40,994 nucleotides of DNA. Origin: a virus (lineage: Duplodnaviria; Heunggongvirae; Uroviricota; Caudoviricetes). Positions 1,009-39,317 of the stretch are shown here, one piece after another; positions within the stretch are counted from its first letter, which is position 1; each line of letters starts with the position of its first letter. The translations under genes and the position numbers were made by a program. The notes under the pieces are model-generated. The model worked only from the letters and a program-made list of their open reading frames with translations, searched no databases and was not told the DNA's origin. The stretch spans positions 1-40,994 of the IMG/VR virus record IMGVR_UViG_2617270943_000004; one strand, written 5' to 3'.

Positions 1009-1083
1009 GTCCTCTTAGTTAAATGGATATAACGAGCCCCTCCTAAGGGCTAATTGCAGGTTCGATTCCTGCAGGGGACACCA
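1009..1083 (+). tRNA. argW: tRNA-Arg (anticodon CCU)
   Basis: 75-nt cloverleaf read by hand: acceptor GTCCTCT/AGGGGAC, D stem GTTA/TAAC, anticodon stem AGCCC/GGGCT with loop CTCCTAA (anticodon CCT), T arm GCAGG-TTCGATT-CCTGC, encoded CCA. Confidence 0.85.
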
Positions 1084-1089
1084 TTTATC
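1069..1089. repeat. attL core: 21-bp direct repeat covering the last 15 nt of tRNA-Arg plus 6 nt downstream
   Basis: CTGCAGGGGACACCATTTATC is identical at 1069-1089 and 39297-39317. Confidence 0.75.
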
Positions 1090-1244
1090 AGTTCGCTCCC
1101 ATCCGCACCAGTCCGCAAAATCCCCTGAATATCAAGCCTTCCGTAGATTCACAGTTCGTCATGGTTCGCTTCAGATCGTTGACAGCCGCACTCCATGACG
1201 GGTAAAAAGTGGATAAAATAATTTTACCCACCGGATTTTTACCC

Positions 1245-2402
1245 ATGCTCACCGTTAAGCAGATTGAAGCAGCAAAGCCGAAAGAAAAACCATATCGCCT
1301 ACTCGATGGTAATGGCCTGTATCTTTATGTCCCTGTATCAGGGAAAAAGGTATGGCAGCTTCGCTACAAGATTGACGGTAAGGAGAAAATCCTGACCGTC
1401 GGAAAATATCCGCTTATGACTTTGCAAGAGGCAAGGGATAAAGCATGGACTGCGAGGAAAGACATCTCGGTTGGCATCGATCCGGTAAAGGCGAAAAAGG
1501 CTTCGTCTAACAACAATTCCTTTAGCTCCATTTACAAGGAATGGTACGAGCACAAGAAGCAAGTCTGGTCAGTAGGCTATGCAAATGAACTTGCAAAAAT
1601 GTTTGATGACGACATTTTACCCATCATCGGCGGTCTTGAGATTCAGGATATTGAGCCGATGCAACTGCTGGAAGTAATCCGCAGATTTGAAGATCGCGGT
1701 GCAATGGAGCGAGCAAATAAAGCCCGCAGAAGATGCGGCGAGGTTTTCCGTTACGCTATTGTCACTGGTAGGGCTAAATATAACCCGGCACCTGACCTTG
1801 CTGACGCCATGAAGGGATACCGCAAGAAGAACTTCCCGTTTCTGCCTGCAGACCAGATCCCGGCATTCAATAAAGCACTGGCAACATTTTCAGGAAGTAT
1901 CGTATCGCTCATTGCCACCAAGGTTTTACGCTACACAGCCCTAAGAACGAAAGAGCTTCGTTCCATGCAATGGAAGAACGTCGATTTTGAAAACAGGATT
2001 ATCACCATCGACGCCAATGTGATGAAGGGCCGCAAAATTCATGTGGTTCCTATGTCAGACCAGGTGGTTGAACTTCTCACTACGCTAAGCTCAATCACCA
2101 AACCAGTATCAGAGTTTGTTTTTGCCGGTCGCAACGATAAGAAGAAGCCAATCTGCGAGAACGCGGTGCTGCTTGTGATCAAACAAATCGGCTATGAGGG
2201 TCTGGAAAGCGGTCACGGATTCAGGCATGAATTCAGCACGATTATGAACGAGCACGAATGGCCTGCTGATGCTATTGAAGTGCAACTGGCACATGCCAAC
2301 GGCGGATCTGTGCGCGGTATTTACAACCATGCGCAGTATCTCGATAAGCGCAGGGAGATGATGCAGTGGTGGGCAGACTGGCTTGATGGGAAGGTTGATT
2401 AA
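1245..2402 (+). CDS. intS: Tyrosine integrase, P4-type, argW-specific (IntS-like)
   Basis: 385 aa from ATG 1245 (the ORF-track start at 1209 is an upstream GTG); directly downstream of tRNA-Arg; C-terminal region has recombinase-like HxxR and Y residues; recalled match to IntS of the KplE1/CPS-53 element. Confidence 0.8.
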   Translation: MLTVKQIEAAKPKEKPYRLLDGNGLYLYVPVSGKKVWQLRYKIDGKEKILTVGKYPLMTLQEARDKAWTARKDISVGIDPVKAKKASSNNNSFSSIYKEWYEHKKQVWSVGYANELAKMFDDDILPIIGGLEIQDIEPMQLLEVIRRFEDRGAMERANKARRRCGEVFRYAIVTGRAKYNPAPDLADAMKGYRKKNFPFLPADQIPAFNKALATFSGSIVSLIATKVLRYTALRTKELRSMQWKNVDFENRIITIDANVMKGRKIHVVPMSDQVVELLTTLSSITKPVSEFVFAGRNDKKKPICENAVLLVIKQIGYEGLESGHGFRHEFSTIMNEHEWPADAIEVQLAHANGGSVRGIYNHAQYLDKRREMMQWWADWLDGKVD

Positions 2403-2530
2403 AGAACAATAACAGCGCGTTGATATAACCTTTTTTAATAAACATAAAAACCAACAAACCATCTTTAATTAACAATCTGATTACTAAAGATTCTTATTTG
2501 AATGAGCCATCCTTGGCGATTTATATTATA

Positions 2531-4987
2531 TCAGGGAATTATCATATTCCCTGTTGTTACTATATATGGAGTATTTTCTGGCTCGTTGACTCTACTAACG
2601 CCACGCTCTACGTTTCCAGTGTGATTTAAGTAACTGCCACCTGATGTAATAGATTTCTGAAACTCTATTTTCCCACCTTGAAACGTATTCCCTGTAGAGT
2701 TTACTCTGAATGCTCCTGAAGCATTATTTATTTTGAATGCGCATGTTTCTCCGCTCAATATACATTGATTATTTTTATATGACATTGTTATTGGTCCACT
2801 TCCTGCCTCATCTTTATTTAAAGTAAAATGACTATTAAGCCCTGACGCTCCTGTTCCAGACTGTGAAACGTCATGTATTTTTACGATTTGCTCTGATGGG
2901 CCTTGAAAAATAAAACCAGTATTAGATAATGATCCGGACAGCATGCTAAACCGCGTTGCAGCAACAACATTCTCAAGACTTGAACCTGATCCTGAAACAT
3001 CACAATTAATTAGTTCAATCCAACTACCACCATAATATGAACCGTTTGAATTCCTGATATATGTCGATTCAATTTTCACCCTTTGGTTAAGAGAATCAGG
3101 CAGAGCATTCTCTGCTTGCTTGTTTAACACAATGTCACAGCCGAATATTTTTGCCCCACGCCCATAAACATTAGAGCTTTGGGTAAATCTAAGCCCTCTA
3201 TCGGCATCAGTTGAGTTTTCTCCAATAGTAACATCAATCAATGTGACGGCATCATTGTTTAATCTTGCACCTTTTGTAAATATTGCATGCAATATGTTAA
3301 GGTTGGTAACTTTTGAAGTTGCAATTAAATAATCTCCGAAATGATGGGTTACAGTTATATTATCTGCTGACTCACCATAATATTCACCACTGTTTGCAAT
3401 GCTTAAAAGACCATAATTATTATCAAATCGCAAATTGTGCTCAAACATACCGTGCGTTGTAAATGCACCATTTCTTGTTCCTGTTTCTCCGCAATCTCTT
3501 ACAGAGCAATAACTTGCACCACTAAAATCAACTACGTGCCTTCCTGAAATATTGCGTAATCTTCTTGCGTGGCATTCATATGCGTTATTGAATTGAACAA
3601 CATGATCGGACCCTGGAACTCTTGGGAAATTTGTTTCCGTATCATGAACAAAAACATTCCTGACCATGGCAGTTACAACCATTGGGTAAGGGTGATTAAA
3701 TCCATACCCGAGACAAATGTCAGCGTTATTTACGTATTCAAGGGACACAAGTGCGCATGATTGTTGACTGGCAAATGCATCGCCACCACCTGAAGCATCT
3801 GTTATGTTTTGATTCCATTTTACGCCTTTAAAAGCAATTCTTACATTTTCTATTGGGGTTACATTTCTATATGTCAATACCCTTCCGACATCAAGATGCC
3901 AGCCTGTTTTATAATCAACTCGCAATTGAGTTATTGCTCCACCACTGCCCTGCACTTGTGTCATTACATTTATTTCTCTACCTACGGTTCCCCCGCCAAC
4001 ATCCGATGACATAATAACCCACTGTCTATTCTCAAAAAGAGAGTTGTTCGTACACCAATATGTTGTATCTCCTTTTGATATTTTATTTGTTAGAGTAAAA
4101 GAGTCTATTATATCTCCAGCAGTGCCGCGAAATGCTAGAATGCCAGGAAAACGATAGTTACTTGGATTTGTAGATCCACTTCTATCAGGAATATGTCCTT
4201 CCGGAGCATTCCATATTATCTCCGTATCAGGCATATCAATTGCCAGGTCGCCGCGTGTAATTACAATATTGTTTGTTAGTATCAACTCTTTTATATTTGT
4301 TGTGATTTTTTTTGCTGGTGAGTTAATTGCTTTATGAAATGCTTCGGTGTTGTCAGCGCCATCTTTAGCTCCGAAATCCTCAAGCATAACATTATATATA
4401 TCATCTGATTTCCATACATTTCCTTCTGATGTGAAAATTATCGTTCCTCCGTTATCTGTCAATCCATCAGGATTAACACTACGGAAAAACCTTCCACCTC
4501 CTGAATAGCTGTCAGAGTAATATCCCCTCAGTCTTATAACCTGTCCATCATAACTTGGTTCAATTGTTCTCAATGTAGATATATCTTTGCATTCTCCTAT
4601 ATACTTATAGCCATCATCACTTTTCAGCAAATATGAAAACTGATCTGGATCGTACTTCAGCACATTAGGGAAATAGAACTGCTGTGATCCATATGCATCG
4701 TACACAGCCATAGAATGGCCTTGCACGGTTACGAATTTGGCAATCTGTCCGTTATATACAGGATAACCAGCAGCGTTAATGATGATTGGTTGCGAAACAG
4801 GAACGTGAGAGCCGTCTTCGTTTTCCACATAAACCTGAATCTGGTTTTCAGGATTTACAGGGTCAGTGTCAATTTTACCGATATAAATTTTGCCATTGGC
4901 ATTTGCTTTAAACGAGCGAGCTAAAGTAAATAACTGACTTGGTTGTGAAACAACAACGTTGTATAATTGTTCTGGCATAATAAACAT
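2531..4987 (-). CDS. Tailspike protein with P22-type N-terminal head-binding domain and a long divergent receptor-binding domain
   Basis: 818 aa; the first ~110 aa (NVVVSQP...[19 protein letters not shown]...INAAG...[13 protein letters not shown]...VLKYDPDQ) follow the recalled P22 gp9 head-binding domain; the remainder is G/S/N/T-rich, consistent with a beta-helix. Confidence 0.85.
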
Positions 4988-5000
4988 TCCGGAGAAAATA

Positions 5001-5501
5001 ATGAGTAAGAGACGTCACGAGGTAGTAACTCGGGAGCGCCTTATGGAGGTTCTCGATTACAATAAAGAAACAGGAATTTTCACTTGGAAAAAGAAATTAA
5101 GCGCCAGAGGTGCTGTTGGGAAAGTTGCTGGCACAATTTCTTATGGATATAACGCAATTAATATTGATGGCGTAAGATATTTTGCACATAGACTTGCCTG
5201 GCTGTATGTATATGGCGAATGGCCCAAACAAGAGATTGACCACATTGATAGAAATAGAAGAAATAACGCAATCTCAAACCTTAGGGATGTCAGCAGAGTC
5301 GTAAACGCATTAAATGTCGGACCTCGAAATAGCAATGCTGGAATCAAGGGGGTAACTTTCTGTCAAGCCAGAAATCAATGGCAAGCTCAGATAAATGTCT
5401 CAGGTAAAAACATAACCCTTGGGAGATTCAACACCATTGATGAAGCGGCTATAGCTTATAAGGCAGCAAACATGGTTGCTGACCATCTGTTGAGTAGGTA
5501 A
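5001..5501 (+). CDS. HNH endonuclease with AP2-like DNA-binding domain (free-standing homing-endonuclease-like)
   Basis: 166 aa; GGAG 7 nt upstream of ATG 5001; HNH-like motif [13 protein letters not shown]-terminal GIKGVTF...W.A.I...GK...[15 protein letters not shown] resembles an AP2 domain; paralogous to the ORF at 26109-26675. Confidence 0.65.
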
Positions 5502-5569
5502 TGTCTGTCATTTAATTTGCTCCAGATAAAAGGAATCGCCGCAGCATAGCTACGGTGAGTTTTGGGCAT

Positions 5570-5600
5570 AAAAAACCCAGACTAAGCTGGGTTGATTTTT
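5570..5600. terminator. Bidirectional intrinsic terminator
   Basis: Hairpin AACCCAG-ACTAAG-CTGGGTT (5574-5593) with an A-run upstream and T-run downstream, so it reads as a terminator on both strands; sits between the convergent HNH gene and the antirepressor-like gene. Confidence 0.5.
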
Positions 5601-5614
5601 ATGAAAAGATTAAA

Positions 5615-6340
5615 TTAGGCTGCGGTAGAAACATTAATTAGATTTCTCAATACTTCAACTCCTTTTAAGTTGTAGCGAAACGCCTCTACCTGTTTGCTGG
5701 AATGCGCCGATTTATCCAGGAAGAACTTCCCGTACTGCTCAGTTTTGAGGTTGTTTGCGTTAGCAATGCGACCAATCTTGTTGGCCGTTACTCCAAGCTG
5801 CTCTGCAACCTCCCCTGCTGAGTAGTAATGCTCTTCTATTGCCGGAAGAGGTATTGCATTAAAACCAACAAGCGGGTTGATTATAGTTGCTGCCGCTGTC
5901 TGCTTTGCCTCCGGCGCAAGATTTGGCATCAGATCGAACAGATTGGTAACAGCTTCAACCGTCATTTTCAGTGTTCGCGCTTGACGATACTCAACAAGTC
6001 CACTCGCTGATTTACCGCTTTTAATGTGTGCTTCCTGCATACTTTCAAGTTTGTCTACAAGTGTTCGGCGAACTGCTTTAGATTCGCGAGCAGCAACACG
6101 AAGCGCCTGCTTGATAGTCATGGAGATAACATCAATGTCAGCCCCGTTTTTCCGACCTACACTTTTTGTGTAGGTCTCGCCCTCCAATTCATCCTCAATT
6201 TTCTCGATGAATTTGTTGTTACGTACAGATGGCTCTCCACATAACTTGCGAGCTTCATTAACCATCATCAGAAGACTTTGGCTGTCAATGGTTTTATCCG
6301 TGACAACGGATCCGATGTTTGCTACATTCTTCAAAGTCAT
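5615..6340 (-). CDS. Phage antirepressor-like protein, C-terminal (KilAC/ANT-C-like) type; family tentative
   Basis: ATG at 6340 preceded by AAGGAA; the ORF-track start at 6391 is a GTG inside a terminator hairpin; lies in the immI-like block downstream of arc-like and Bro-N-like genes. Confidence 0.45.
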   Translation of the reverse strand: MTLKNVANIGSVVTDKTIDSQSLLMMVNEARKLCGEPSVRNNKFIEKIEDELEGETYTKSVGRKNGADIDVISMTIKQALRVAARESKAVRRTLVDKLESMQEAHIKSGKSASGLVEYRQARTLKMTVEAVTNLFDLMPNLAPEAKQTAAATIINPLVGFNAIPLPAIEEHYYSAGEVAEQLGVTANKIGRIANANNLKTEQYGKFFLDKSAHSSKQVEAFRYNLKGVEVLRNLINVSTAA

Positions 6341-6409
6341 TAGGCATTCCTTATGTGGTAGTAAGGGTGTGACATAGGCCGCCAGCAGCACACTGGCGGT
6401 TTTCTTTTT
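6335..6409 (+). ncRNA. Predicted sar-like antisense RNA overlapping the start codon and RBS of the antirepressor-like gene
   Basis: Plus-strand promoter-like TGACAA (6301-6306), 16-bp spacer, TACATT (6323-6328), and about 75 nt downstream a plus-strand intrinsic terminator (stem CCGCCAG/CTGGCGG 6379-6399, then TTTTCTTTTT). Nearby genes are on the minus strand, so the transcript would be antisense to the ATG at 6340. Confidence 0.35.
6379..6409 (+). terminator. Intrinsic terminator on the plus strand (3' end of predicted antisense RNA)
   Basis: 7-bp GC-rich stem, 7-nt loop, followed by TTTTCTTTTT. Confidence 0.55.
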
Positions 6410-6428
6410 GCGCAGTCCGGCGCACCAA

Positions 6429-7055
6429 TCAATGAATCCATTCCTCGCCGCGAAGTTTTGCCAGCATTGGCTGAGCGTTCTTTACGACAAAATTGTTGGT
6501 ATCAAGATTCTTCATTTCACGAAGAAGTGATTTCTTGGTTTCTTCTGACATGTAGCGAGTCTCATATGCAATATCGTAAATCCTTCCTGAAAGCTCAGAA
6601 CCAATTTGCTTCATTCCTGGGTAGATGTGTTTGCACATTTGTTGACTCTTCTCCATCCACAATTGTAAGTAGCAGAGATTAACCAGTTCTTCGTCAGTAA
6701 ACTGTTTTGCAATCGGTGAGCATTCTGCCTGCCGATCCAAAATATCCAGCACCCAGCGGCGGAACTCTTTGGCTACCGGAGTGCGAGCAAACATCGCGAT
6801 TAGGTGGGCACCGCGTAGTGAGAAAACTCGCACTTTTTTGCGATAATTTCCTGAGGTACTCACTTCGAGTACCTGAGTCATTCCGGCGCTAAACTCATCG
6901 CTATACTTGTTATAAATCATTGTTACTGCACGACTATTTGCGTATTTAAGTGCAGATGCAATATTAGATGATGTAAACCAAACACCATGCATATCACGGG
7001 TGGGCACCAACTCAACTCCGTGGAAGTTGTAATCTGATTTTGCTACAATATTCAT
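6429..7055 (-). CDS. Phage antirepressor, N-terminal Bro-N/AntA-like domain protein
   Basis: ATG 7055 preceded by AAGGAA; N-terminus MNIVAKSDYNFHGVELVPTRDMHGVWFTSSNIASAL resembles Bro-N/AntA antirepressor N-domains; follows the arc-like gene as ant follows arc in P22 immI. Confidence 0.6.
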   Translation of the reverse strand: MNIVAKSDYNFHGVELVPTRDMHGVWFTSSNIASALKYANSRAVTMIYNKYSDEFSAGMTQVLEVSTSGNYRKKVRVFSLRGAHLIAMFARTPVAKEFRRWVLDILDRQAECSPIAKQFTDEELVNLCYLQLWMEKSQQMCKHIYPGMKQIGSELSGRIYDIAYETRYMSEETKKSLLREMKNLDTNNFVVKNAQPMLAKLRGEEWIH

Positions 7056-7128
7056 GTTAGTTTCCTTGCATACGGTTACTGACATAGAGGCCCGGTTTGT
7101 GTTCGCGCACTGCCGGGCTTCGCTATTT

Positions 7129-7302
7129 TTACTGGGCATTAGCTCTTTCCTCTCTCAGGCTTTTAGCCAGTCGCTGCACAATCGCAGAGTTGATAGAAAT
7201 TCCATCCATTTCAGCAACACGTCTAATCTCCTCCTTCATTCGCGCTGGCAAACGAAGCTGGAAACTTTGACTTTTACGACCTGTGTAAAGCACATCTTTC
7301 AT
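7129..7302 (-). CDS. arc: Arc-like ribbon-helix-helix repressor
   Basis: 57 aa from ATG 7302 with GGGAGG RBS; FQLRLPARMKEEIRRVAEMDGISINSAIVQRLAKS follows the recalled P22 Arc pattern (FNLRWPREVLDLVRKVAEENGRSVNSEIYQRV). Confidence 0.7.
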   Translation of the reverse strand: MKDVLYTGRKSQSFQLRLPARMKEEIRRVAEMDGISINSAIVQRLAKSLREERANAQ

Positions 7303-7323
7303 AAGTAATCCTCCCACAATGAT

Positions 7324-7377
7324 ACCAACTTGGTTCTAGAACCAATTTAACACCATTTATTTTGATGTCAAGTTGGT
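7324..7377. promoter_or_regulatory. Divergent arc/mnt control region with a 16-bp perfect palindrome and a flanking 9-bp inverted repeat pair
   Basis: TTGGTTCTAGAACCAA at 7330-7345; ACCAACTTG (7324-7332) and its reverse complement CAAGTTGGT (7369-7377). Confidence 0.45.
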
Positions 7378-7413
7378 GCTATTGTTTGGCGAACATCTTT
7401 ACGTTGAGGTCAT

Positions 7414-7797
7414 ATGAGCAAGTTCCCTAGTCATGAAATGGATAGGTTCAATATCAGGCTTCCGGCAGGAATGCGGGATGCTATAGCCTTAAGAGCAAAG
7501 GAAAACGGCAGATCAATGAATACAGAACTAGTGTTTATCATTGATGATGCATTGAAGTCTCCGGTGCCTGCTGAGGTTGATAACTCAAGGATTATGAAGA
7601 TTTACTCAAACCTCTCCGAGAACAGGCCATCAAACAAAGAAGAGTTTGAGCGGTGGGAGAATGAGCTAGTCAAAGCAATTTTCTACTTACTAGATAGCAT
7701 AAGTTCTCATTCGCAAATGTATCAAGCTCTCAGGAGCTTAAGGCAAGATGCATATAAAAATGTTTTTGGCGATGATGCTGAAGACATCCAGTTTTGA
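7414..7797 (+). CDS. mnt: Mnt-like ribbon-helix-helix repressor with C-terminal extension
   Basis: 127 aa; GAGGT RBS; N-terminus FNIRLPAGMRDAIALRAKENGRSMNTELVFIIDDALKS follows the recalled P22 Mnt pattern (FNFRMPMEVREKLKFRAEANGRSMNSELLQIVQDALS). Confidence 0.65.
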   Translation: MSKFPSHEMDRFNIRLPAGMRDAIALRAKENGRSMNTELVFIIDDALKSPVPAEVDNSRIMKIYSNLSENRPSNKEEFERWENELVKAIFYLLDSISSHSQMYQALRSLRQDAYKNVFGDDAEDIQF

Positions 7798-7845
7798 AGA
7801 CCATTTCATCTGGTATCCTGCGCAAAACTAAGGAGAGTTAATTAT

Positions 7846-8331
7846 ATGAAAAAATCACTGTTAATTATCCCGCTTCTGCTGGCTGGGTGCGCAAAAGTAA
7901 GCGACCATCAGGCAAGTTGCGAGCAACGCTATCCAAAGCTTAGCGATATGGCTAATTGCCTTGATGCCAGCGTGAAGAACGACTCACGCATGGCATCAGC
8001 ACCAACACCTAAGCTGTATGTCCTTGCTGCGAAAATGCTCGGGCAAGGTGTCGATGAAGGCAAGATAAGTGACGCACAGGCAAGACTTGAGCTTCAGAAT
8101 CTTTATGTTCAATTACAAAGCCAAGAACAAGCACAACAAATAGCACAAAGCCAAGCATTCCAGCAGGCTTTATTGAATTATCAGGCTGTAAACACAATGC
8201 AAGCGATCGAGCAAAAAGCGCGCCAGCCTGTTATAACTCAACCTTACCCAACACGCGTTGACACCTATACAAACTGCAATTCAGGATTTGGAAATACCGT
8301 CACATGCAACAGTAGCAGCAACATTAGATAA
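7846..8331 (+). CDS. Predicted lipoprotein, glutamine-rich (accessory gene in the sieA position)
   Basis: 161 aa; AAGGAGAG RBS; signal peptide MKKSLLIIPLLLAGC with lipobox LAGC; Q-rich central segment; sits between mnt-like and the ejection-protein genes. Confidence 0.6.
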   Translation: MKKSLLIIPLLLAGCAKVSDHQASCEQRYPKLSDMANCLDASVKNDSRMASAPTPKLYVLAAKMLGQGVDEGKISDAQARLELQNLYVQLQSQEQAQQIAQSQAFQQALLNYQAVNTMQAIEQKARQPVITQPYPTRVDTYTNCNSGFGNTVTCNSSSNIR

Positions 8332-8333
8332 AG

Positions 8334-11713: not shown

Positions 11714-11722
11714 GATTACCCC

Positions 11723-12415: not shown

Positions 12416-12417
12416 GG

Positions 12418-12873
12418 CTATCTCCCGTGATTCAGGAAGTCGATTAGTTCTTCGCGTGTGGCGCTGTAAAAAGTCACGTCATCCACGCCTTTAAAGTATT
12501 TCTTGATGGTTCCGACACGCTTAAGGCCAATCATTGCGCAGTAAATCTGCCCGTGGCGGAATTTGCGTGCGGCGAACGATGTGACGCACTGAACGGTGGT
12601 GTTAGTCAGAATGTATCGCCAGAACGCCAGCCCGATTTCCTTGCTGAAGCCGCGAATCTCTGGCAGGTACATGGCGTGGCAATCGAATGTCAGCGGCTGA
12701 ATCTCCTGATAGTAAACAATGCCGCCGAACTGCCCGTGCACGTTCACCTCAAAGTAACGGCATTCAGGCTTGTAGTCGTATCCATCACCGTTGTTGCTCC
12801 CGGCAATAATGTCAGGGTGATTTCCGACAGCTTCGATCAGGTCGATGTTTCGCGTTGGTTTGAATGTAATCAT
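12418..12873 (-). CDS. P22 gp14-like virion assembly/ejection accessory protein
   Basis: 151 aa; between the tail needle and gp7-like genes as in P22. Confidence 0.45.
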   Translation of the reverse strand: MITFKPTRNIDLIEAVGNHPDIIAGSNNGDGYDYKPECRYFEVNVHGQFGGIVYYQEIQPLTFDCHAMYLPEIRGFSKEIGLAFWRYILTNTTVQCVTSFAARKFRHGQIYCAMIGLKRVGTIKKYFKGVDDVTFYSATREELIDFLNHGR

Positions 12874-24507: not shown

Positions 24508-24752
24508 GCTCTACCCCTTCATTGAGGGGATTTGCTCTATTTAATTAGGAATAAGGTCGATTACTGATAGAACAAATCCAGGCTACTGTGTTTAGTAATC
24601 AGATTTGTTCGTGACCGATATGCACGGGCAAAACGGCAGGAGGTTGTTAGCGCAACCTCATGCCACCCGCTTTCACGAAGGTCATGTGTAGAAGGCCGCA
24701 GCGTAACTATCACTGATGAATTCAGGATAGCCAGTGGCTACGGCTCAGTTAT

Positions 24753-24828
24753 GGTGCTGGTTAACGGACTTGAACCGCTACCCATTCGCTTACAAGGCGA
24801 CTGCTCTACCATTGGAGCTAAACCAGCA
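24753..24828 (-). tRNA. Phage-encoded tRNA-Thr (anticodon UGU)
   Basis: 76-nt cloverleaf on the minus strand: acceptor GCTGGTT/AACCAGC, D stem GCTC/GAGC, anticodon loop CTTGTAA, T loop GG-TTCAAGT-CC, encoded CCA. Confidence 0.6.
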
Positions 24829-24833
24829 TATTT

Positions 24834-24908
24834 GGCGGGACAGCGTGGACTCGAACCACGATAAGAAGGTTAACAGCCTTCCGTAATGACCTTTATACGA
24901 CTGACCCA
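24834..24908 (-). tRNA. Phage-encoded tRNA-Asn-like (anticodon GUU)
   Basis: 75 nt on the minus strand: anticodon stem GAAGG/CCTTC with loop CTGTTAA, T arm CGTGG-TTCGAGT-CCACG, encoded CCA; acceptor stem has one U-U mismatch and the D stem is weak. Confidence 0.5.
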
Positions 24909-24969: not shown

Positions 24970-25488
24970 CTAAATGGCTAATTGCATGTCAAGGTTTTTA
25001 ACAGCAACATGCTTAACTTTCTCAACACGTTTACGCATTTTGAAAGCATTTTGCATTGGTTGGTACAAAACAAATAATGACGCTTTCAGGATGTCGTCAA
25101 TTTCGTTTCTACAGGTTGCCAGTGAAGGTTTTCTCCATCCCTCGCCACCACGTCCACACATCTTGCGTGGCTTTGCAGTCGCGTGATAGTAGGATGCAAT
25201 TGCTCGCTTAGATGAACCATGAGCGTAGTAGCTGAGGAGGATGCCAAAGGCTTTTTTGTCAATGTACATGACGGAATCGACGACCTGAGAAATCAACATT
25301 CCATCATCATCATTGCACATTGGCCTTGTCATAACTCTTCCCGGCTCTACGCTCTCCATGAACTTCGCTATTACGCTGCTCATGCGCTTTTCCAGACGAC
25401 CTGAATAAACCCATGCGCCCCACAGTTCAAGCCAGCCATTCAGCCACTCGTGCTGCTCTTTGGTGAGGTTTAGTTCTCTTATGCCCAT
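24970..25488 (-). CDS. Late-gene antiterminator Q-like protein
   Basis: 172 aa; AAGGGAGAAGG RBS; lies between ninG and the tRNA/lysis genes where Q sits in lambdoid phages; family assignment by position and size only. Confidence 0.5.
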   Translation of the reverse strand: MGIRELNLTKEQHEWLNGWLELWGAWVYSGRLEKRMSSVIAKFMESVEPGRVMTRPMCNDDDGMLISQVVDSVMYIDKKAFGILLSYYAHGSSKRAIASYYHATAKPRKMCGRGGEGWRKPSLATCRNEIDDILKASLFVLYQPMQNAFKMRKRVEKVKHVAVKNLDMQLAI

Positions 25489-25531
25489 GCGCCTTCTCCC
25501 TTGTTATCTGGAATGGTTTTTACTGAGAACG

Positions 25532-26134
25532 TCATGCGGCCTCACTTCTGCTATTTCGCAGGTCTTTGAGTTTCTGCTGATACTCCGCCTTGATGGCCCG
25601 GCACTCTTCGACAGTCCAGCGATGGCGGTTATGGTTTGATTCGATTTCGTCTACTGCTTCCTGCCCGATGCGATTAATCAGTTCGACGCGATACGGAACG
25701 AGATTTCCGCTTTTGTGCTGGTTGCACACCACGCATTGCTTGTGAATATTGCGTTCATCAAATCGGAGTTGAGGTGCCGCAGCAGTTGTCCGGTAATGTC
25801 CGGCATCCCACTGAGCAGACGTGAGCGTTCCGCACGAGATACATGGTAAGTCGCGGTCTCTTTCTCTGATGAAGGCGTTTACGGCTTGTTGGGCTTGTTT
25901 AATCCAGTAACTGCGGGGCTTTAAGGCGAGTTTTCGAATCTTAAGTTTATCTTTCTGTTTCTGCTCCTCTCGTCGTCGTTTCTTCTCTGCTGCTTTTTCC
26001 GCTTTTTCGCGTTCTTTGCTTCGTCGTTCGAGTGCTATCTTGGTTCCACAAATCTCATTACACCAATATTGATTTTGATATTTTGGTATAAACCATTCAT
26101 TGCAACATTTACATTTCCTTCGATAGATTCGCAT
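25532..26134 (-). CDS. ninG: NinG (Rap)-like recombination-promoting nuclease
   Basis: 200 aa from ATG 26134 with AAAGGAG RBS; Cys-rich N-terminus and lysine-rich [21 protein letters not shown] segment; recalled NinG features. Confidence 0.65.
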
Positions 26135-26675
26135 AAGTGCTCCTTTCGTTGCCGGAAAAATCACCGTAATACTTATCTCGGGCTTCTTCAGCAACTAGTA
26201 CCGCTAACTCCAGATCATCAAAGCATCCGAAGTGTTTACTCTTGCCATGGAATCCTAGCCTAACATTCCATTTTTTCTGTCGTTTGTGCCAAGTAACCCC
26301 TCTGCAACCTGATTTGCTATTCTTTCGGATCCTTATATTTCTTGAATTTTCTATTGGCAGGCATTCTCTTAAATTTTCTGGCCTATTGTCGGTCCTAATT
26401 CCATTAACGTGGTCAATTTGACCAGCAGGCCAACGATTATGAGTTATGTAAAAAACTAAGACGTGAGTTTTATATCTACGCCCATCTATCATGATCATTG
26501 AATAACCGTTGGAATCAAAAGTTCCAGCAACACTATTTAATGCTATCCTTCCCTGAGTGGGAACTTTCCATCTAAATACCCCGGTAGATTTATCGAAACT
26601 TAGTAACTCAAATATCCTTTTAACAGTTAAATCTTCTCTTTTACGGTTACGTCGTCTTCGCGCTGGTTTAGCCAT
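26109..26675 (-). CDS. HNH endonuclease with AP2-like domain (second copy)
   Basis: 188 aa; HNH-like [19 protein letters not shown]2-like [47 protein letters not shown]; overlaps the ninF stop by 8 nt and the ninG start by 26 nt. Confidence 0.65.
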
Positions 26676-26844
26676 CGTCTTCTTCCTCGTACATTGAGCT
26701 ATTCGGATCGCTCATCAGTTCTGCGCAGCAATCGGAGCACACGTGAACTTCCAGCACATGCAGATTCTGACCGCAGTTAGCGCACGTTAAAGCTCGCTCG
26801 ACGCTTTCTTTCTGGTATTGAAGGGATTGGGATGGGCTAAGCAT
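26668..26844 (-). CDS. ninF: NinF-like small Cys-rich protein
   Basis: 58-aa ORF below the ORF-track cutoff; contains CxxC...C..CC; sits in the nin block. Confidence 0.45.
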   Translation of the reverse strand: MLSPSQSLQYQKESVERALTCANCGQNLHVLEVHVCSDCCAELMSDPNSSMYEEEDDG

Positions 26845-27205
26845 TATTAGCGACCTGCATCATGAGAAAGACAATCATGGCGGCGCGGAGAGGCGATTCA
26901 CCGCAGAAGCAGTAGTCAGGAACCCAACAACCTTCCTCTAAATCACCTCCTGACCATGCGCACCATTCTTTTTCCGCTGTCATCCACATGGTGCTAATTT
27001 TGTTTTCAGTGATGATCGGATATGCGTCAGCGGCCATATTACATGGGTCGAAATATCCGCAAGGCAAAAACTCACCACCATCAATTCCAGCCAAGTAAAC
27101 TTCTTTCTTTTCTGGATCCCAGTCGTAATTGTTTTTTCCTAGCACGATATGCGCGACTTTTAAGTTAATTTCAAAATCACTTAACTGTGAATAATCCATT
27201 GTCAT
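26837..27205 (-). CDS. Nin-region protein (NinX/DUF2591-like, tentative)
   Basis: 122 aa from ATG 27205, which forms an ATGA overlap with the ninE-like stop. Confidence 0.4.
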
Positions 27206-27378
27206 TTCCTCGCACGATGTCTTAGCCACCGGATATCCCACAGGTGAGCCGTGTAGTTGAAGGTTTTTACGTCAGATTCTTTTGGGATTGGCTTGCGTTT
27301 ATTTCTGGAGCGTTTCGTTGGAAGGTATTTGCAGTTTTCGCAGATTATGTCGGTGATACTTCGTCGCTGTCGTCTCAT
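27202..27378 (-). CDS. ninE: NinE-like small basic protein
   Basis: 58 aa ([58 protein letters not shown]); ATGA overlaps at both ends; below the ORF-track cutoff. Confidence 0.5.
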
Positions 27379-28220
27379 GCCGCATCCTCAAAATTAAATC
27401 CAAGCTGACATGAAAATGCTTCACATGATTCAGAACACGAACCTGAATCATACTGTCGCATTGATGTCATTCTTGAGGCTAACTCATCTCTTGATATATC
27501 ACTAAACAAGGCAATCAGTGATTTAAGTGTATTATTCCCTCGATACATAACCGGTTCCTTTCCTGTTTTTATTTCTGTATCAAGGATGTTGATAAATGCA
27601 TCTGCAAGTTCTGGCTCATCCATGGCTGACAGCGCAACCTTTTGCATACTTTTTTTTATACAGAAAACACAATTACCAAGATGCTCCTGTATGCCAAGAT
27701 CAAACTTCTGCCCACTCCACCAATCAAGCACATCCTGTTTTTCAAAATCGCTTATATCAGCCAGGTACCGAAAACCATTAGCCCTTTTAAGCCTGTTTGG
27801 TTCATCTGTGCGAATGCCAAGCCATGTGATGTAATTTCCTTTCCCAAACTTTTCCTGACAATATTTGGTGAATGGAACAGACTTCATTCTGTCGGTACAG
27901 AACGCACCGCCGATATATGGATGTCCGTATTTATTCAACATCCTTTTCCACGGTATAAGATCTGGACCAATATCAGTGACACCTATCTCTTCATAACCAC
28001 TGGCCTTCCCCATTTCTGGATTAGGTATTACACGAAGGCAATGTAAGTCTATTTTCCAGTTACTGACGATATTTCGGATGAACTCATATGTTTTAGGGTG
28101 CTCTGCCCCTGTATCCATGAAAACGTAATGCACGTCTTCACCAGCCTGTCGCTTTTGCTCCATTAGCCAGAGCAAATATGCTGACGTCCTGCCACCGGAG
28201 AAACTAACGACATTTATCAT
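27375..28220 (-). CDS. PAPS-reductase-family protein (NinC-like)
   Basis: 281 aa from ATG 28220 (ATGA overlap with ninB stop); N-terminal [14 protein letters not shown] resembles the PP-loop SGGxDS motif. Confidence 0.65.
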
Positions 28221-28657
28221 GCAGCCTTGTCTCCCCATCTTGCTTTCCACTCCAGAGCCAGTCGCGCTTCGTCTGACCACTTAACGCCACGCTCTGTACC
28301 GAATGCCTGTATAAGCTCTAATAGCTCCGCAAATTCGCTTACACGCATCCTGCTGGTTGACTGGCCTATTACCACAAAGCCATTCCCGGCAAGGTTAGGA
28401 ACAACATCCTGCTGCTTTAATGCTGCGGTAAACACACACTTCCAGCTTTCTGCATCCAGCCAGCGACCATGCCATTCAACCTGACGAGAGACGTCACCAA
28501 GGCAAGCCCAAAGCTTCCTGTTTTGGTCTAAGCTGCGGTTGCGTTCCTGAATGGTTACTACGATTGGTTTGGTTGGGTCTGGAAGGATTTGCTGTACTGC
28601 GTGAATAGCGTTTTGCTGATGTGCTGGAGATCGAATTTCAAAGGTTAGCTTTTTCAT
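28217..28657 (-). CDS. ninB: NinB (Orf)-like recombination mediator
   Basis: 146 aa from ATG 28657 with GGGGGAGAGGGAAG RBS; first nin-block gene after the helicase. Confidence 0.65.
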   Translation of the reverse strand: MKKLTFEIRSPAHQQNAIHAVQQILPDPTKPIVVTIQERNRSLDQNRKLWACLGDVSRQVEWHGRWLDAESWKCVFTAALKQQDVVPNLAGNGFVVIGQSTSRMRVSEFAELLELIQAFGTERGVKWSDEARLALEWKARWGDKAA

Positions 28658-28670
28658 GACTTCCCTCTCC

Positions 28671-28705
28671 CCCAAATAAAAAGGCCTGCGATTACCAGCA
28701 GGCCT
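28671..28705 (-). terminator. Intrinsic terminator between helicase and nin genes (tR2-like position)
   Basis: Hairpin AGGCCTGC-GATTACCA-GCAGGCCT (28682-28705) followed on the minus strand by TTTTATTT. Confidence 0.55.
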
Positions 28706-28730
28706 GTTATTAGCTCAGTTATGTAGATGG

Positions 28731-30107
28731 TCATACGTCAGCCCCTTGTGCATATCGTCTGCCACGCGCAGCAGGTGCATTTGATGCTGTGCAAATCTGT
28801 CTGGCTTCATCCTGGTCACATGCAACAAAGTGTCCGTTACAGAACCGCTGGTAAACCGTACCAAGCGAGCCAAAACGGTTTTTCGTCACAATGATTTCAG
28901 CAAATGGCGCGGCGCTACTGTTCTCGTCATATACCGCTTCCCGATAGAGCATGATGATTGAGTCTGCGTCCTGTTCAATGCTTCCTGAATCACGCAAATC
29001 TGCGTTTGTCGGGCGTTTGTTTGGTCGCTTCTCAACATCGCGCGAAAGCTGACTTAGGGAGATAACAGGCGTTTTCAGGTCTTTCGCCATCGCCTTCAGG
29101 CTTCCGGAGATGTGAGCAATTGCGAGGTCGTTGCGGTCTGCTTTCGGCTTCTCAATCAGGCCAAGATAATCCGCCATGATGAGTGACAGGTTTGGATTTT
29201 CCTGTTTGTGCCGTTCTGCGATTGAGCGTATTTCTTCGACCGATAACCGCGAGGCATCGACTACCCATACATCCAAATCTGCAAGCTGACTCATGCCGTT
29301 AGCAACGCGCGCCCAGCCTTCGTCATCCATCGATGCAGGATTTCGCAGTACGCTAACCGACATCCTCCCGGCGTTGGCAATGCTTCGCTCTGCAATCTGC
29401 AATGCGCTCATTTCCATTGAGAAAATCAATACCCCGCGCCGGACGTCAGAACCAGGAATAACGCGGCTTGCAACGCCTTCGGCAATCTTCAGCGCCAGTT
29501 CGGTTTTCCCCATACCAGGACGAGCAGCGATTATCACCAGGTCTTCCGCGTTCATCCCTCCGGTGATGGCATCAAGTTCTTCGATTCCGGTCTTCAGGGT
29601 ATCTGACTCTTCTCCGTTCCTCAGACGCCTGTCAAGCGTGTCAGTGTAGTCAGTAATGATTTCTCCTAACCGTACAGGTTTTACCTCGTCACGGGGCTTT
29701 CTGATGGCTGAGAGACGTTTTACAAGTTCATCCATCGCCTGACTCGATGCGTCGATGGTTCCGCTTTGGATTGGTTCACGCATTTCATCCATGATTTCCA
29801 GCACCAGACGGCGGTGATAGTTATCCGCGACCATTCCGGCATATCCCTTCAGGTTTGCGGCACTCGGGCAGTTTTTGCTGGTCATCAGGATTGACGTGAA
29901 ATGATCCTCTCCGCACGCCTCGGCAACCATCAGCGCGTCGATTAGGTTTCTGTTTCTCGCCTGCTTACGGATAACTTCGAAGGCTTTCCTGTAGAGCGGA
30001 ATTGAAAACGCTTCCGGCTCAAGCGTTGCCAGAACGTCACTGGCGGTTGGTGTTAATCCACCAATCAGCAGGCCACCGATAACGCTCGCTTCGATATCCT
30101 GTTTCAT
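28731..30107 (-). CDS. Replicative DNA helicase, DnaB family (P22 gene 12-like)
   Basis: 458 aa; Walker A ARPGMGKT; RecA-like C-terminal domain features. Confidence 0.85.
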
Positions 30108-37923: not shown

Positions 37924-38201
37924 TGGACTCCTTCGCGGAATATACGATCATTGACTGGATAGCCTTCCTTCAAGTTTTGCTCATCTGGTTTTATATGGCT
38001 TACAGGAGTGGACAGTGGATTGTCAGTGTAGCCTGTAGCAAGGGATGGCGTTGGTGGAACAGAAAGAATAAAAAAGCACTGGCATTGGATTCGTTTTACG
38101 AAGCATTCAATCTTAACAGCCTTCAGCCTGGTTCTGTCATTGTAGTCACCACTCAAAGCGGCATGACCATTCAGATTCATAAACCAAAAGAGGAAAAATG
38201 A
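37923..38201 (+). CDS. Hypothetical membrane protein
   Basis: 92 aa; N-terminal hydrophobic segment IIDWIAFLQVLLIWFYMAY. Confidence 0.4.
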   Translation: MDSFAEYTIIDWIAFLQVLLIWFYMAYRSGQWIVSVACSKGWRWWNRKNKKALALDSFYEAFNLNSLQPGSVIVVTTQSGMTIQIHKPKEEK

Positions 38202-38287
38202 TGTGGCCTATATGTGTTAATTGCGGACGGATGTGCCTATCTGGATGGTGCCGAAAGTGCGACAAATGCACGAAGCAAAGACAATAA
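38198..38287 (+). CDS. Hypothetical Cys-rich micro-protein
   Basis: 29 aa with seven Cys (CxxC...C...C..C..C); ATGA overlap upstream. Confidence 0.25.
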   Translation: MMWPICVNCGRMCLSGWCRKCDKCTKQRQ

Positions 38288-38359
38288 CAATCCTCGCACT
38301 CGCGGGGATTTCTTTTATCTGAACTCGCTACGGCGAGTTTTGTTTTATGGAGATGATAA

Positions 38360-38527
38360 ATGCACTTCCGAGTCACAGGTGAATGGAATGGAGAGCCATT
38401 CGACAGGGTTATCGAAGCAGAGGACATCAACGACTGCTATGACCACTGGATAATATGGGCGCAGATAGCACATGCAGACATAACCAATATTCGAATTGAA
38501 GAACTGAAAGAACACCAAGCCGCCTGA
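38360..38527 (+). CDS. Hypothetical small protein
   Basis: 55 aa; GGAG RBS; stop lies inside a terminator hairpin. Confidence 0.3.
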   Translation: MHFRVTGEWNGEPFDRVIEAEDINDCYDHWIIWAQIAHADITNIRIEELKEHQAA

Positions 38528-38541
38528 TGGCGGTTTTTTTA
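38519..38541 (+). terminator. Intrinsic terminator
   Basis: GCCGCC-TGAT-GGCGG followed by TTTTTTT. Confidence 0.55.
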
Positions 38542-38554
38542 TTGGAGACAAGAA

Positions 38555-38899
38555 ATGTCAGATTTGGCTATGAAGGTTTTGAAATGGCAATCGACTGGCG
38601 ATGTTGGCATCAGTAGCGCAACTCTTGCCTCAATCGCATGTGGCCTGAAAAAGAATATCTATGGTCATCACTTCGGCGCTCCACATGATGCAGCCGATTT
38701 CCGGCGATGCGTTGCACTTGTTGAGCAGATTCCAGAAATCAGAGATTCATTCGACAAGGTTGCAAAGCGCGTTCCGGCATTCAAAGGAATCCTCAACGAA
38801 TGGGATTCACTCGTTGCTCTGTTGAAGTCTGAAATGAAGACGTACGGGAACAAAGCACCAGAGACTTACAGAAGAATCAGCGAGCTACGCAAGGACTAA
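38555..38899 (+). CDS. Hypothetical protein, terminator-insulated (moron-like)
   Basis: 114 aa; GGAG RBS; terminator-like hairpins on both sides. Confidence 0.45.
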   Translation: MSDLAMKVLKWQSTGDVGISSATLASIACGLKKNIYGHHFGAPHDAADFRRCVALVEQIPEIRDSFDKVAKRVPAFKGILNEWDSLVALLKSEMKTYGNKAPETYRRISELRKD

Positions 38900-38955
38900 C
38901 CCGCCTCACACTCGATGAGGCATTTTCATTTATCAAGATATCCAGACCTACCATC

Positions 38956-38978
38956 GCCGCATCAATGCGGTTTTTTTA
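38956..38978 (+). terminator. Weak intrinsic terminator
   Basis: Short stem CCGC/GCGG then TTTTTTT. Confidence 0.4.
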
Positions 38979-38987
38979 TTACCTGAT

Positions 38988-39003
38988 TTGCAGGTTCGAT
39001 TCC
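38988..39003. repeat. 16-bp displaced copy of the tRNA-Arg T-arm
   Basis: TTGCAGGTTCGATTCC is identical to tRNA positions 1054-1069; lies 293 bp upstream of the attR core. Confidence 0.6.
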
Positions 39004-39022
39004 CTATTCGGAGATAGCACTC

Positions 39023-39223
39023 ATGCAACACGAACTACAGCCTGATTCCCTGGTTGATTTGAAATTCATCATGGCCGATACTGGCTTCGGTAAAACCTTC
39101 ATCTATGACCGGATTAAGTCCGGAGACCTGCCTAAAGCCAAAGTTATCCACGGGCGAGCACGATGGTTATATCGTGACCATTGTGAATTCAAAAATAAGC
39201 TCTTAAGCCGCGCTAATGGGTAA
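39023..39223 (+). CDS. torI: Excisionase / recombination directionality factor, AlpA-TorI family
   Basis: 66 aa; GGAG RBS; sits between the tRNA T-arm copy and the attR core; recalled as the partner of IntS in KplE1; symbol tentative. Confidence 0.55.
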   Translation: MQHELQPDSLVDLKFIMADTGFGKTFIYDRIKSGDLPKAKVIHGRARWLYRDHCEFKNKLLSRANG

Positions 39224-39296
39224 ATTAGCGGGTAAAATATTTCTCACATCTAAAAAATACCATTCTAATCAATCCCCTGCCACCTCAAGTAGATGT

Positions 39297-39317
39297 CTGC
39301 AGGGGACACCATTTATC
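39297..39317. repeat. attR core (21-bp direct repeat of attL)
   Basis: CTGCAGGGGACACCATTTATC identical to 1069-1089; inverted CCCCTGC at 39284-39290 just upstream. Confidence 0.75.

Follow-up and report, generated by a model that had tools for sequence, protein, structure and literature searches.

An argW prophage with P22-like late genes and a KplE1/HK620-type recombination module, and a conserved box in its torI leader

In the recombination module of the prophage KplE1 (CPS-53) of E. coli K-12 and of phage HK620, integration and excision are both catalysed by the integrase IntS (PMC2951348, PMC3509656, PMC8787464). IntS binds arm-type TAAA repeats on both arms of the attachment site and represses its own promoter, which lies within attL. 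The recombination directionality factor (RDF, or excisionase) TorI binds five GTTCG-type 8-mers in attL, drives excision, and represses intS, and IHF assists. The TorI and IntS sites on attL were mapped by Panis et al. (PMC2951348), where the TAAA motif was found to be common to the IntS arm-type sites, mutation of the GTTCG pentamer abolished the action of TorI on attL, and TorI/IntS-dependent excision regenerating attB and attP was demonstrated on KplE1 and HK620 substrates. The same study predicted a promoter-attL overlap for 61.5% of tRNA-adjacent integrase genes. In Kapi1, attP sits between int and xis, so that the two genes lie at opposite ends of the prophage (PMC8787464). This arrangement is already published for the KplE1/HK620/Sf6/CUS-3/Kapi1 module, of which it has been the defining feature since 2001-2010, and experiments on KplE1, HK620, and Sf6 have established it. 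In the KplE1 work, RDF expression is the main control point of excision and the torI promoter is called 'non-characterized'.

Other well-described systems are built differently. Lambda and P22 share with the prophage described here a heterobivalent tyrosine integrase, a small winged-helix RDF, IHF, and an xis gene that ends the pL operon. Their gene order, however, is xis, int, attP, with both genes together at attL, co-transcribed from pL, and sib-retroregulated, and their Xis binds the P arm (attR), whereas the TorI-type RDF binds attL. The satellite phage P4 (Int/Vis) and the phages P2 and 186 (Int/Cox, Int/Apl) resemble the present case in having a P4-family integrase beside a tRNA gene and uncoupled transcription of integrase and RDF, and the P4 integrase gene is repressed by Int and the RDF (PMC2951348). 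They differ in their RDF proteins, binding sites, and target tRNAs, and their RDF gene does not lie against attR.

The window analysed here, a 40,994-nt stretch of viral DNA (IMG/VR record IMGVR_UViG_2617270943_000004), almost certainly holds a complete P22-like (Lederbergvirus) prophage that was integrated into argW through the KplE1/HK620-type recombination module. The insert of 38.2 kb (1090-39317) lies in this tRNA-Arg(CCT) gene, and a 21-bp direct repeat marks its two boundaries (Table 1); no third copy of the repeat occurs anywhere in the window. The gene is left intact, its 3' end being supplied by the phage. The attL repeat contains the published 16-nt KplE1 core CTGCAGGGGACACCAT (PMC2951348), and the core CTGCAGGGGACACCA(T) is duplicated at the 3' end of argW. 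Comparison with unoccupied argW loci, proposed in the first-pass annotation, confirmed the prophage boundaries: the empty site of E. coli N96 reads yfdC, argW, and then the right flank of the window, with 2 mismatches in ~445 nt. The TTTATC that follows CCA is native to attB at this empty site, which explains why the repeat measures 21 bp here and 16-17 bp in K-12, HK620, and Kapi1. The right bacterial flank encodes an MFS sugar transporter here but dsdC at KplE1, and the repeat is therefore 21 bp as opposed to 16 in KplE1.

The late genes are P22-like, with megablast matches to CUS-3, Sf101, and Kapi1 that span the portal, terminase, coat, and DNA-transfer genes. A tailspike Head_binding domain, a Bro-N/P22_AR_C antirepressor, and an Arc-like protein were detected, in keeping with P22-like virion and ejection genes and an immI-like region, and the early-left operon (N-like, ral, cIII, erf, ssb, abc2) runs up to torI. 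The prophage is closest to CUS-3 and resembles Kapi1, with which it also shares two tRNA genes upstream of the lysis genes (PMC8787464). Like the argW-integrating Lederbergvirus phages HK620, Sf6, CUS-3, and Kapi1, it combines the xis-attP-int order with P22-like late genes, and its torI-attP segment is 95-96% identical to that of HK620 and Sf6. Its mosaic nevertheless differs from theirs: in the query with 1084-25000, CUS-3 was the best match at 56% coverage, similarity in the tailspike is confined to the head-binding domain, and torI is separated from the early-left genes by an additional 114-aa ORF that has a terminator of its own. When 1084-25000 was compared with phages and 25000-39400 with complete E. 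coli genomes, no record matched more than ~57% of the query, and the exact prophage was absent from the complete E. coli genomes searched. KplE1 shares with it the target tRNA, the core, an identical TorI, the position of torI beside attR, the T-arm 16-mer upstream of torI, and, at equal offsets, the five TorI 8-mers, PintS, and the arm sites. KplE1, however, is a 10.2-kb defective remnant without a repressor, whereas in the window the module belongs to a complete P22-like genome of 38.2 kb.

Table 1. Coordinates of the recombination module and its leader box in the window, with the basis of each assignment
Feature	Position	Strand	Basis
argW tRNA-Arg(CCT), integration target	1009-1083	+	ARAGORN; same tRNA alone at the empty N96 site
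21-bp direct repeat, attL copy CTGCAGGGGACACCATTTATC	1069-1089	+	exact repeat
Predicted TorI (RDF) site I1 CAGTTCGC	1089-1096	+	transferred from K-12 positions (PMC2951348)
Predicted TorI (RDF) site I2 CAGTCCGC	1109-1116	+	transferred from K-12 positions (PMC2951348)
Predicted TorI (RDF) site I3 CAGTTCGT	1152-1159	+	transferred from K-12 positions (PMC2951348)
Predicted TorI (RDF) site I4 TGGTTCGC	1162-1169	+	transferred from K-12 positions (PMC2951348)
Predicted TorI (RDF) site I5 CAGATCGT	1172-1179	+	transferred from K-12 positions (PMC2951348)
Predicted promoter PintS	1179-1245	+	-35 TTGACA 1179-1184, -10 TAAAAA 1203-1208; hexamers as in PMC2951348
Putative IntS arm-type P' site GGGTAAAAA, overlapping PintS	1200-1208	+	TAAA motif (PMC2951348)
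Putative IntS arm-type P' sites TTTTACCCA, overlapping PintS	1222-1230, 1237-1245		TAAA motif (PMC2951348)
intS-type tyrosine integrase gene, directed away from the tRNA	1245-2402	+	Pfam domains, PHROG 1, identity to IntS-type integrases
Intrinsic-terminator-like hairpin and T-run, directly 5' of the torI leader	38956-38980	+	consensus scan
tRNA T-arm copy, 16-mer TTGCAGGTTCGATTCC	38988-39003	+	exact match to tRNA 1054-1069
Leader box GTTCGATTCCC, 29 nt upstream of the torI ATG	38994-39004	+	conserved part of the T-arm copy
torI, recombination directionality factor (excisionase)	39023-39223	+	PDB 1Z4H, PHROG 66; torI in E. coli annotations
Direct GGGTAAA repeat pair, probable IntS arm-type sites (P arm)	39218-39236	+	starts at 39218 and 39230
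Conserved block AATCAATCCCCTGC, inverted relative to core GCAGGGGA	39267-39280	+	inverted repeat; kept across genera
21-bp direct repeat, attR copy CTGCAGGGGACACCATTTATC	39297-39317	+	exact; native-flank junction confirmed against the empty site

At attL, the integrase gene adjoins the attachment site in the orientation of the tRNA, with its predicted promoter within attL. The first-pass annotation had called the product IntS-like, which is borne out by its Pfam domains (Arm-DNA-bind_3, Phage_int_M, Phage_integrase) and by 97-99% identity to the IntS-type integrases of HK633, Sf6, and VT2phi_272. The five TorI-type 8-mers (1089-1179) form two blocks, and GTTCG-type sites occur at the identical five offsets in six phages. 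GGGTAAA is found in attL at 1200 (+), 1223 (-), and 1238 (-), and the attP repeat features of HK620 align with these arm repeats. Putative IntS arm sites containing TAAA are present on both arms at the published offsets.

At the far prophage end, the 66-aa ORF described earlier as a TorI/AlpA-like excisionase is identical to E. coli TorI (PDB 1Z4H) in 66 of 66 residues, and its stop codon lies 73 nt from the attR repeat. It had also been taken as the only excisionase-like gene; a PHROGs scan of 19 early-left ORFs (31771-39223) returned it as the sole match to the excisionase family. The first of the two attR GGGTAAA repeats overlaps the torI stop codon. The pair is kept in every relative with this arm type and is labelled attP repeat_region in the HK620 record, and the repeats are likely to be IntS arm-type sites on the P arm. 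Of the earlier suggestion that they bind the recombinase or the directionality factor, the TAAA motif and the HK620 annotation favour the former, whereas TorI binds attL. The inverted repeat noted beside the core is present, TCCCCTGC (39273-39280) pairing with GCAGGGGA (39299-39306). The block that contains TCCCCTGC may be an IHF site or an accessory core-type site, and AATCCCCTG also occurs to the right of the core (1119-1127). The attR segment is found in 1,386 of 5,426 complete E. coli genomes (at least 80% coverage), about a quarter, and is always annotated with torI.

Integrase (1245-2402) and torI (39023-39223) are thus separated by the whole prophage rather than adjacent on one side of attP and co-transcribed from pL. 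It had been deduced for the circular phage that attP must separate xis from int. In the records of HK620 and Sf6, hkaC/gene 18 (identical to TorI), the attP core, and int indeed follow one another in this order on one strand, in agreement with the Kapi1 paper. With the left half of the HK620/Sf6 attP, the attR region shares 95-96% identity, and core, repeats, and int are annotated in those records in the predicted order. TorI is identical to that of KplE1 and HK620, and the integrase is 97-99% identical. The circular genome would read pL early-left operon, terminator, torI, P arm, attP core, P' arm with PintS, and intS, and recombination within 15-21 bp of identity at the tRNA 3' end would therefore leave intS at attL and torI at attR. 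In contrast to lambda and P22, attP would separate the two genes, and by analogy int would have its own autoregulated promoter. Lying behind a terminator at the end of an N-antiterminated pL operon, torI would presumably be expressed only upon induction.

The 16-bp exact copy of the T-arm, reported 293 nt from the attR repeat, is where it had been described, and the 16-mer occurs in the window only there and in the tRNA. By our own estimate (~60 tRNA 16-mers x 82,000 positions on both strands / 4^16), ~0.001 exact matches are expected by chance in the whole window, and the copy is therefore not a chance match. It was also found in K-12, HK620, and Sf6; its absence from related prophages had been named beforehand as an outcome that would speak against it. 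The copy is phage-borne. A comparison of 138 distinct leaders shows conservation of the loop part and variation in the stem part. In 102 of them a box GTTCGATTyCC precedes the xis start by ~29 nt, even where xis and torI share only 39-51% identity. Two boxes in tandem, 14-16 bp apart, occur in some phages. The box is missing from 30 of the 138 leaders and is therefore dispensable in some lineages. We infer that the 16-bp copy is the E. coli-lineage form of this leader box and is of tRNA origin. Our best guess is a linear sequence element controlling torI expression, and we tentatively propose, as one possibility, an undescribed cis-regulatory element that sets the level of the directionality factor. 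No mention of the box was found in the literature searched, outside of which lay the original HK620/Sf6 genome, 2007 JBC, 2010 Virology KplE1, and 2013 PNAS Rho papers. The published KplE1 model is silent on it. It is the only possibly new detail of the locus and a minor lead.

The first-pass annotation had called the T-arm copy displaced. It could form, with the attR core, the halves of one tRNA 3' fragment (a longer attP) split by the torI segment, or be the scar of an older att site: its last tRNA base, C1069, is the first base of the core repeat, and 16-mer and core tile tRNA positions 1054-1089 with a 1-nt overlap. The attP core of relatives, however, has its own decayed T-loop directly to the left (GAGTTCGATGTATGCAGGGG in Serratia and AATTCGATGTATGCAGGGG in Erwinia phages), so that the leader box is a second copy and not a missing half. 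Conservation is moreover limited to the loop part while the stem part varies, and a passive scar would not stay invariant at -29 from the xis ATG beside diverging flanks. On the strength of the decayed T-loops and the loop-only conservation, we reject a split tRNA or second att site as improbable and see in the copy a separate conserved element of the torI leader. The box also contains the GTTCG pentamer, and TorI is already known to repress intS, as if the excisionase autoregulated by binding its own leader. Yet in a profile built from 31 TorI-type sites of six phages, GTTCG is always followed by C or T where the box has A, and the box scores -2.1 bits (rank ~2,059 in the window) compared with 10.5-14.9 bits for the five attL sites. 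In phiEt88, the box persists although different repeats, CGATGTAAC, occupy the TorI-site positions and Xis is 39% identical. A TorI operator was rejected on these grounds as quite unlikely. A 'phage integration' promoter and a cII site are annotated in HK620 at the equivalent of 38977-39015, that is, a predicted PI promoter with a cII box in the box region, which would deliver integrase without excisionase when lysogeny is established; if transcription began at the SD or beyond it, TorI translation would be bypassed, as with lambda PI. A consensus scan, however, found no sigma-70-like promoter between the 38956-38980 hairpin and torI, the TTGC repeats are unconserved beyond the E. coli/Citrobacter types (the first is TTAC in this window), conservation peaks in the would-be spacer rather than in the hexamers, and intS already has a mapped promoter of its own. 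With no promoter-like site and a conservation pattern wrong for a promoter, there is little probability that the region acts in this way.

That the box is a folded T-arm mimic within the torI mRNA is extremely improbable. It is identical to the 5' strand and loop of the T-arm and lies within the region covered by the 30S subunit (-29 to -19), but RNAalifold predicted zero base pairs across 19 diverse leaders, the stem-forming flanks are unconserved, and neither tRNA nor Rfam matches were obtained; the rejection applies to the folded form, not to a linear RNA motif. Rather unlikely, too, is recognition of the box by a factor with a specificity linked to the argW core, the most plausible candidate being the core-binding/catalytic part of IntS. 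The B side of attB has the same sequence as the box, a TTCGAT-like sequence is also retained immediately left of the core in attP, and tandem boxes occur in some phages. Across lineages, the box co-occurs with the TGCAGGGGAC core despite differing arm sites (GGGTAAA versus GCGGGCATAAA), also where RDF sites differ and Xis identity falls to 39%. On the other hand, integrase binding to isolated core-type half-sites is usually weak, the CTGCAGG part is missing from the box, the 14-16-bp spacing of tandem boxes is off helical phase, and every locus examined targets argW, which makes common descent inseparable from the co-occurrence with the core. If IntS did read the box, it would act as a gate on RDF expression or become part of the attR intasome.

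To see whether xis leaders in general copy the T-loop of their target tRNA, viral contigs were scanned for GGTTCGAATCC..GGAG..ATG, which returned real tRNA genes in 105 of 122 cases and no xis-like ORF. Of six distant IntS homologues (28-40% identity), most are without the xis-attP-int order; in the one that shows it, from Acinetobacter phage Acba_11, xis is translationally coupled and the box is missing. A word-based protein search with TorI reached only relatives of at least ~60% identity and no new architectures. As to covariation between the stem flank of the box and the host argW, nearly all prophage-adjacent enterobacterial argW genes share one stem, GCAGG/CCTGC. A single tRNA with ACAGG/CCTGT is similar to the Edwardsiella-type box, at a position that varies freely elsewhere.

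The arrangement of the module itself changes nothing, as it has already been dissected genetically, biochemically, and structurally. The practical value of this locus is that of a clean, bounded example: an intact P22-like prophage with an exactly matching empty site, in which all published sites are recognizable by sequence. The leader box, an 11-nt conserved element also carried by K-12, could matter modestly, as control of excisionase synthesis decides when the common argW prophages leave the chromosome. If the box is read by the integrase or by another factor tied to the argW target, which is conceivable, part of the phage's own target site would have been put to regulatory use.

The module at the two ends of the prophage agrees in every sequence-testable respect with that of KplE1, the K-12 prophage carrying the published IntS/TorI module, and of HK620, and is not of the lambda/P22 type. 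The 66-aa ORF beside attR (39023-39223), described in the first-pass annotation as excisionase-like, is TorI itself (66/66 identity to the solved protein, PDB 1Z4H); its Pfam match is weak, and it matches the PHROG excisionase family. The other 18 ORFs scanned in the early-left region include nothing excisionase-like, so that within this set torI is indeed the sole such gene. The integrase (1245-2402) contains Arm-DNA-bind_3, Phage_int_M, and Phage_integrase domains and is 97-99% identical to IntS-type integrases from HK633, Sf6, and VT2phi_272. Across the left half of attP, HK620, Sf6, IME10, Kapi1, and others share 95-96% identity with the attR segment, which is found at a query coverage of at least 80% in 1,386 of 5,426 complete E. 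coli genomes, where the gene is always annotated torI. That attP lies between xis and int in the circular phage is borne out by the HK620 and Sf6 records, in which hkaC/gene 18, the attP core, the attP repeats, and int follow one another in that order on one strand; the Kapi1 paper draws the same inference in nearly identical words (PMC8787464). The interpretation is therefore correct and already known.

Comparison with an unoccupied argW locus was possible in E. coli N96, where the right flank of the window comes immediately after yfdC and argW (2 mismatches in ~445 nt). This places the prophage at 1090-39317 (38,228 bp), with the T-arm copy inside it. The hexamer TTTATC following CCA is native to this attB, which accounts for a repeat of 21 bp here versus 16-17 bp in K-12, HK620, and Kapi1. 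In the tRNA, the 16-mer shared by both ends runs from the 5' strand of the T-stem through the T-loop to the second base of the 3' strand; as chance would yield only ~0.001 exact tRNA 16-mers in a window this large (our own estimate), the match reflects common ancestry. The inverted repeat beside the core and the GGGTAAA direct repeats near attR are both present.

Features of the attachment regions and of the predicted intS control region
Feature	Position	Sequence	Basis or remark
tRNA-Arg(CCT)	1009-1083		ARAGORN
21-mer repeat	1069-1089 and 39297-39317	CTGCAGGGGACACCATTTATC	longest exact match between both ends; only these 2 window-wide
16-mer	1054-1069 and 38988-39003	TTGCAGGTTCGATTCC	second-longest exact match between ends; only these 2 window-wide
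Heptamer repeat	39218, 39230; attL 1200; inverted in attL at 1223, 1238	GGGTAAA	repeat search of window
Inverted repeat	39273-39280 and 39299-39306	TCCCCTGC/GCAGGGGA	
Predicted TorI 8-mer I1	1089-1096	CAGTTCGC	transferred K-12 coordinate
Predicted TorI 8-mer I2	1109-1116	CAGTCCGC	transferred K-12 coordinate
Predicted TorI 8-mer I3	1152-1159	CAGTTCGT	transferred K-12 coordinate
Predicted TorI 8-mer I4	1162-1169	TGGTTCGC	transferred K-12 coordinate
Predicted TorI 8-mer I5	1172-1179	CAGATCGT	transferred K-12 coordinate
Predicted intS promoter	-35 1179-1184; -10 1203-1208	TTGACA; TAAAAA	

A further direct repeat, AATCCCCTG, flanks the attP core (39271-39279 and 1119-1127), 17 nt from the 21-bp repeat on the left and 29 nt on the right. 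Both copies are inverted relative to CAGGGGA of the core, the left one is kept in all relatives, and they could represent an IHF site or an accessory core-type site. The flank after attR (39318-40994; L427 among the compared loci) encodes a LacY-family oligosaccharide transporter (39747-40994, minus strand) versus dsdC in K-12; in N96, a small DUF4942 gene fragment precedes the transporter and a kinase gene comes after it. At many other attR junctions of E. coli the sequence is CACCAGATACCC… or CACCATGAACAC…, indicating a variable region downstream of argW.

By sequence comparison, the prophage is a new mosaic within a well-known phage group, and this exact mosaic is absent from complete E. 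coli genomes. Over the left 24 kb, the matches are to P22-like phages, with CUS-3 as the best one (95% identity, 56% of query) and phiv205-1, Kapi1, Sf101, and IME10 among the others; the P22 head-binding domain was identified in the tailspike, and an immI-like pair of antirepressor and Arc was also recognised. The early-left operon (plus strand) includes N-like, ral, cIII, erf, ssb, and abc2 genes and ends with torI. A 114-aa ORF (38555-38899; PHROG 1229, function unknown), extra relative to HK620 and Sf6, separates the early-left genes from the torI leader (38477-38980). The terminator hairpins on either side of it (38517-38536 and 38956-38971) resemble each other, and both give weak, sub-threshold Rfam matches to isrK. 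Gene 20 of Salmonella phage g341c is a homologue in the same position, without the second terminator. A putative homing endonuclease, judging by its HNH_3 and AP2 domains, is encoded at 4959-5501 on the plus strand, against the direction of the late genes; its ORF shares 29 nt with the beginning of the tailspike gene. Genes for tRNA-Thr(TGT) and tRNA-Asn(GTT) (24752-24907, minus strand) are situated between a 172-aa ORF (24970-25488), presumably a Q-type antiterminator by its position, and the lysis genes. The same tRNA arrangement has been described for Kapi1 (PMC8787464). Enterobacterial-type torI modules (85-92% protein identity) also occur on L010 and L025, contigs with Actinomycetes and Parachlamydiaceae MAG labels, respectively, probably as an artefact of binning or contamination.

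The regulation of this type of module has been described by Panis et al. (PMC2951348). The intS promoter sits inside attL and is repressed by IntS through arm-type sites sharing TAAA, and by TorI through sites I4 and I5; the five TorI 8-mers are arranged as two blocks, and their positions in the window were obtained by transferring the K-12 coordinates of that study. Such autoregulation, with a promoter overlapping the att region, was predicted for 61.5% of 1,273 tRNA-adjacent integrase genes, and RDF expression was proposed as the main control of excision, with the torI promoter drawn as "non-characterized" (PMC2951348). Counted from base 13 of the core match TGCAGGGGACAC, the five TorI-type sites lie at 9, 29, 72, 82, and 92 nt, and these offsets are identical in six phages (from Escherichia, Erwinia, and Klebsiella, plus one viral contig of unknown host; compared loci L001, L003, L004, L005, and L123), among which the sequence between the sites has diverged. 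In Erwinia phage phiEt88, CGATGTAAC-type repeats replace the TorI-type sites at the RDF positions, which suggests that the RDF specificity has changed while the scaffold is otherwise conserved.

The T-arm copy is found base-for-base in K-12 KplE1, HK620, Sf6, and nearly all of 80 E. coli-type viral contigs. It lies directly 3' of the intrinsic-terminator-like hairpin (38956-38971 plus a T-run), and no sigma-70-like promoter was detected between this hairpin and torI. A survey beyond E. coli, using one genome per species, viral contigs, and phage records, covered an Erwinia phage, Serratia, Citrobacter, Pantoea, and Edwardsiella and was extended to the Salmonella g341c group (Xis 51% identical to TorI) and phiEt88 (39%). 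The loop part of the copy, here called the leader box (GTTCGATT), was found at the corresponding position in most of them: it is exact in 102 of 138 distinct 70-nt leaders, degenerate in 6, and missing from 30. Conservation measured on leaders selected for the box is partly circular. The same 8-11 nt at one position across highly diverged xis lineages is independent evidence of conservation. In 87 of the 102 exact-box leaders, the box has its G at position -29 relative to the ATG, and four leaders carry a tandem double box. Neither the upstream stem part (GCAGG, CCAGG, ACAGG, TCAG, CCTG, CCAA) nor the spacer to the Shine-Dalgarno sequence is constant. Farther upstream the lineages have unrelated sequences, which makes the box the 5' boundary of the conserved xis-attP-int cassette. 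The box alone is naturally deleted in three loci (L013, L414, and L421; …TTATTGCCTGGAGG…), with a junction that fits deletion between short CTGG repeats, and is point-mutated in a few other leaders (GTTAGATC, GTTAGACT); these leaders are possible natural controls. No displaced copy was found in the box-less loci checked.

The first-pass annotation had described the 16-mer as a displaced copy of the tRNA T-arm. The exact 16-bp match stands, and its last base is the first base of the core, suggestive of a split tRNA fragment; however, the attP core of the relatives bears its own decayed T-loop at its immediate left, (G)TTCGATGTATGCAGGGG, which makes the box an additional copy and not the other half. 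A TorI operator is contradicted by the A that follows GTTCG in the box, versus a pyrimidine in all 31 TorI-type sites profiled from six phages; by this profile the box ranks ~2,059th in the window, and phiEt88 keeps the box despite its different repeats at the RDF positions. The PI promoter and cII box predicted by the HK620 annotators fall at the T-arm copy, but the TTGC boxes are unconserved and the conservation maximum is in the would-be spacer. A folded RNA is not supported either: RNAalifold returned zero pairs for 19 diverse leaders, and the box region has no ARAGORN or Rfam matches. Possible covariation with the Edwardsiella-type tRNA stem involves one ACAGG/CCTGT tRNA only, and the position varies freely elsewhere.

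The remaining reading is a linear sequence element that a factor constant across modules would recognise on DNA or RNA. The argW core is the only other constant recognised, together, by inference, with the core specificity of the integrase, and a TTCGAT-like sequence is also retained left of the attP core. On this basis we place first, with low confidence, a regulator of torI expression linked to the integrase or to the target. All loci examined are directed at argW; function and shared descent of the box are therefore inseparable in these data. The same architecture was sought on other tRNAs and not found.

None of the three possible objections (no excision product, no AlpA/TorI-like fold, no such copy in relatives) applies: published work demonstrates excision with an identical RDF and an integrase that is near-identical, the 66-aa ORF is TorI, and the T-arm copy recurs in related prophages. 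The finding as a whole is nonetheless already known. No description of the leader box was found in the literature searched, several key papers falling outside that search. The residual value thus lies in the leader box, for which K-12 allows a direct test.
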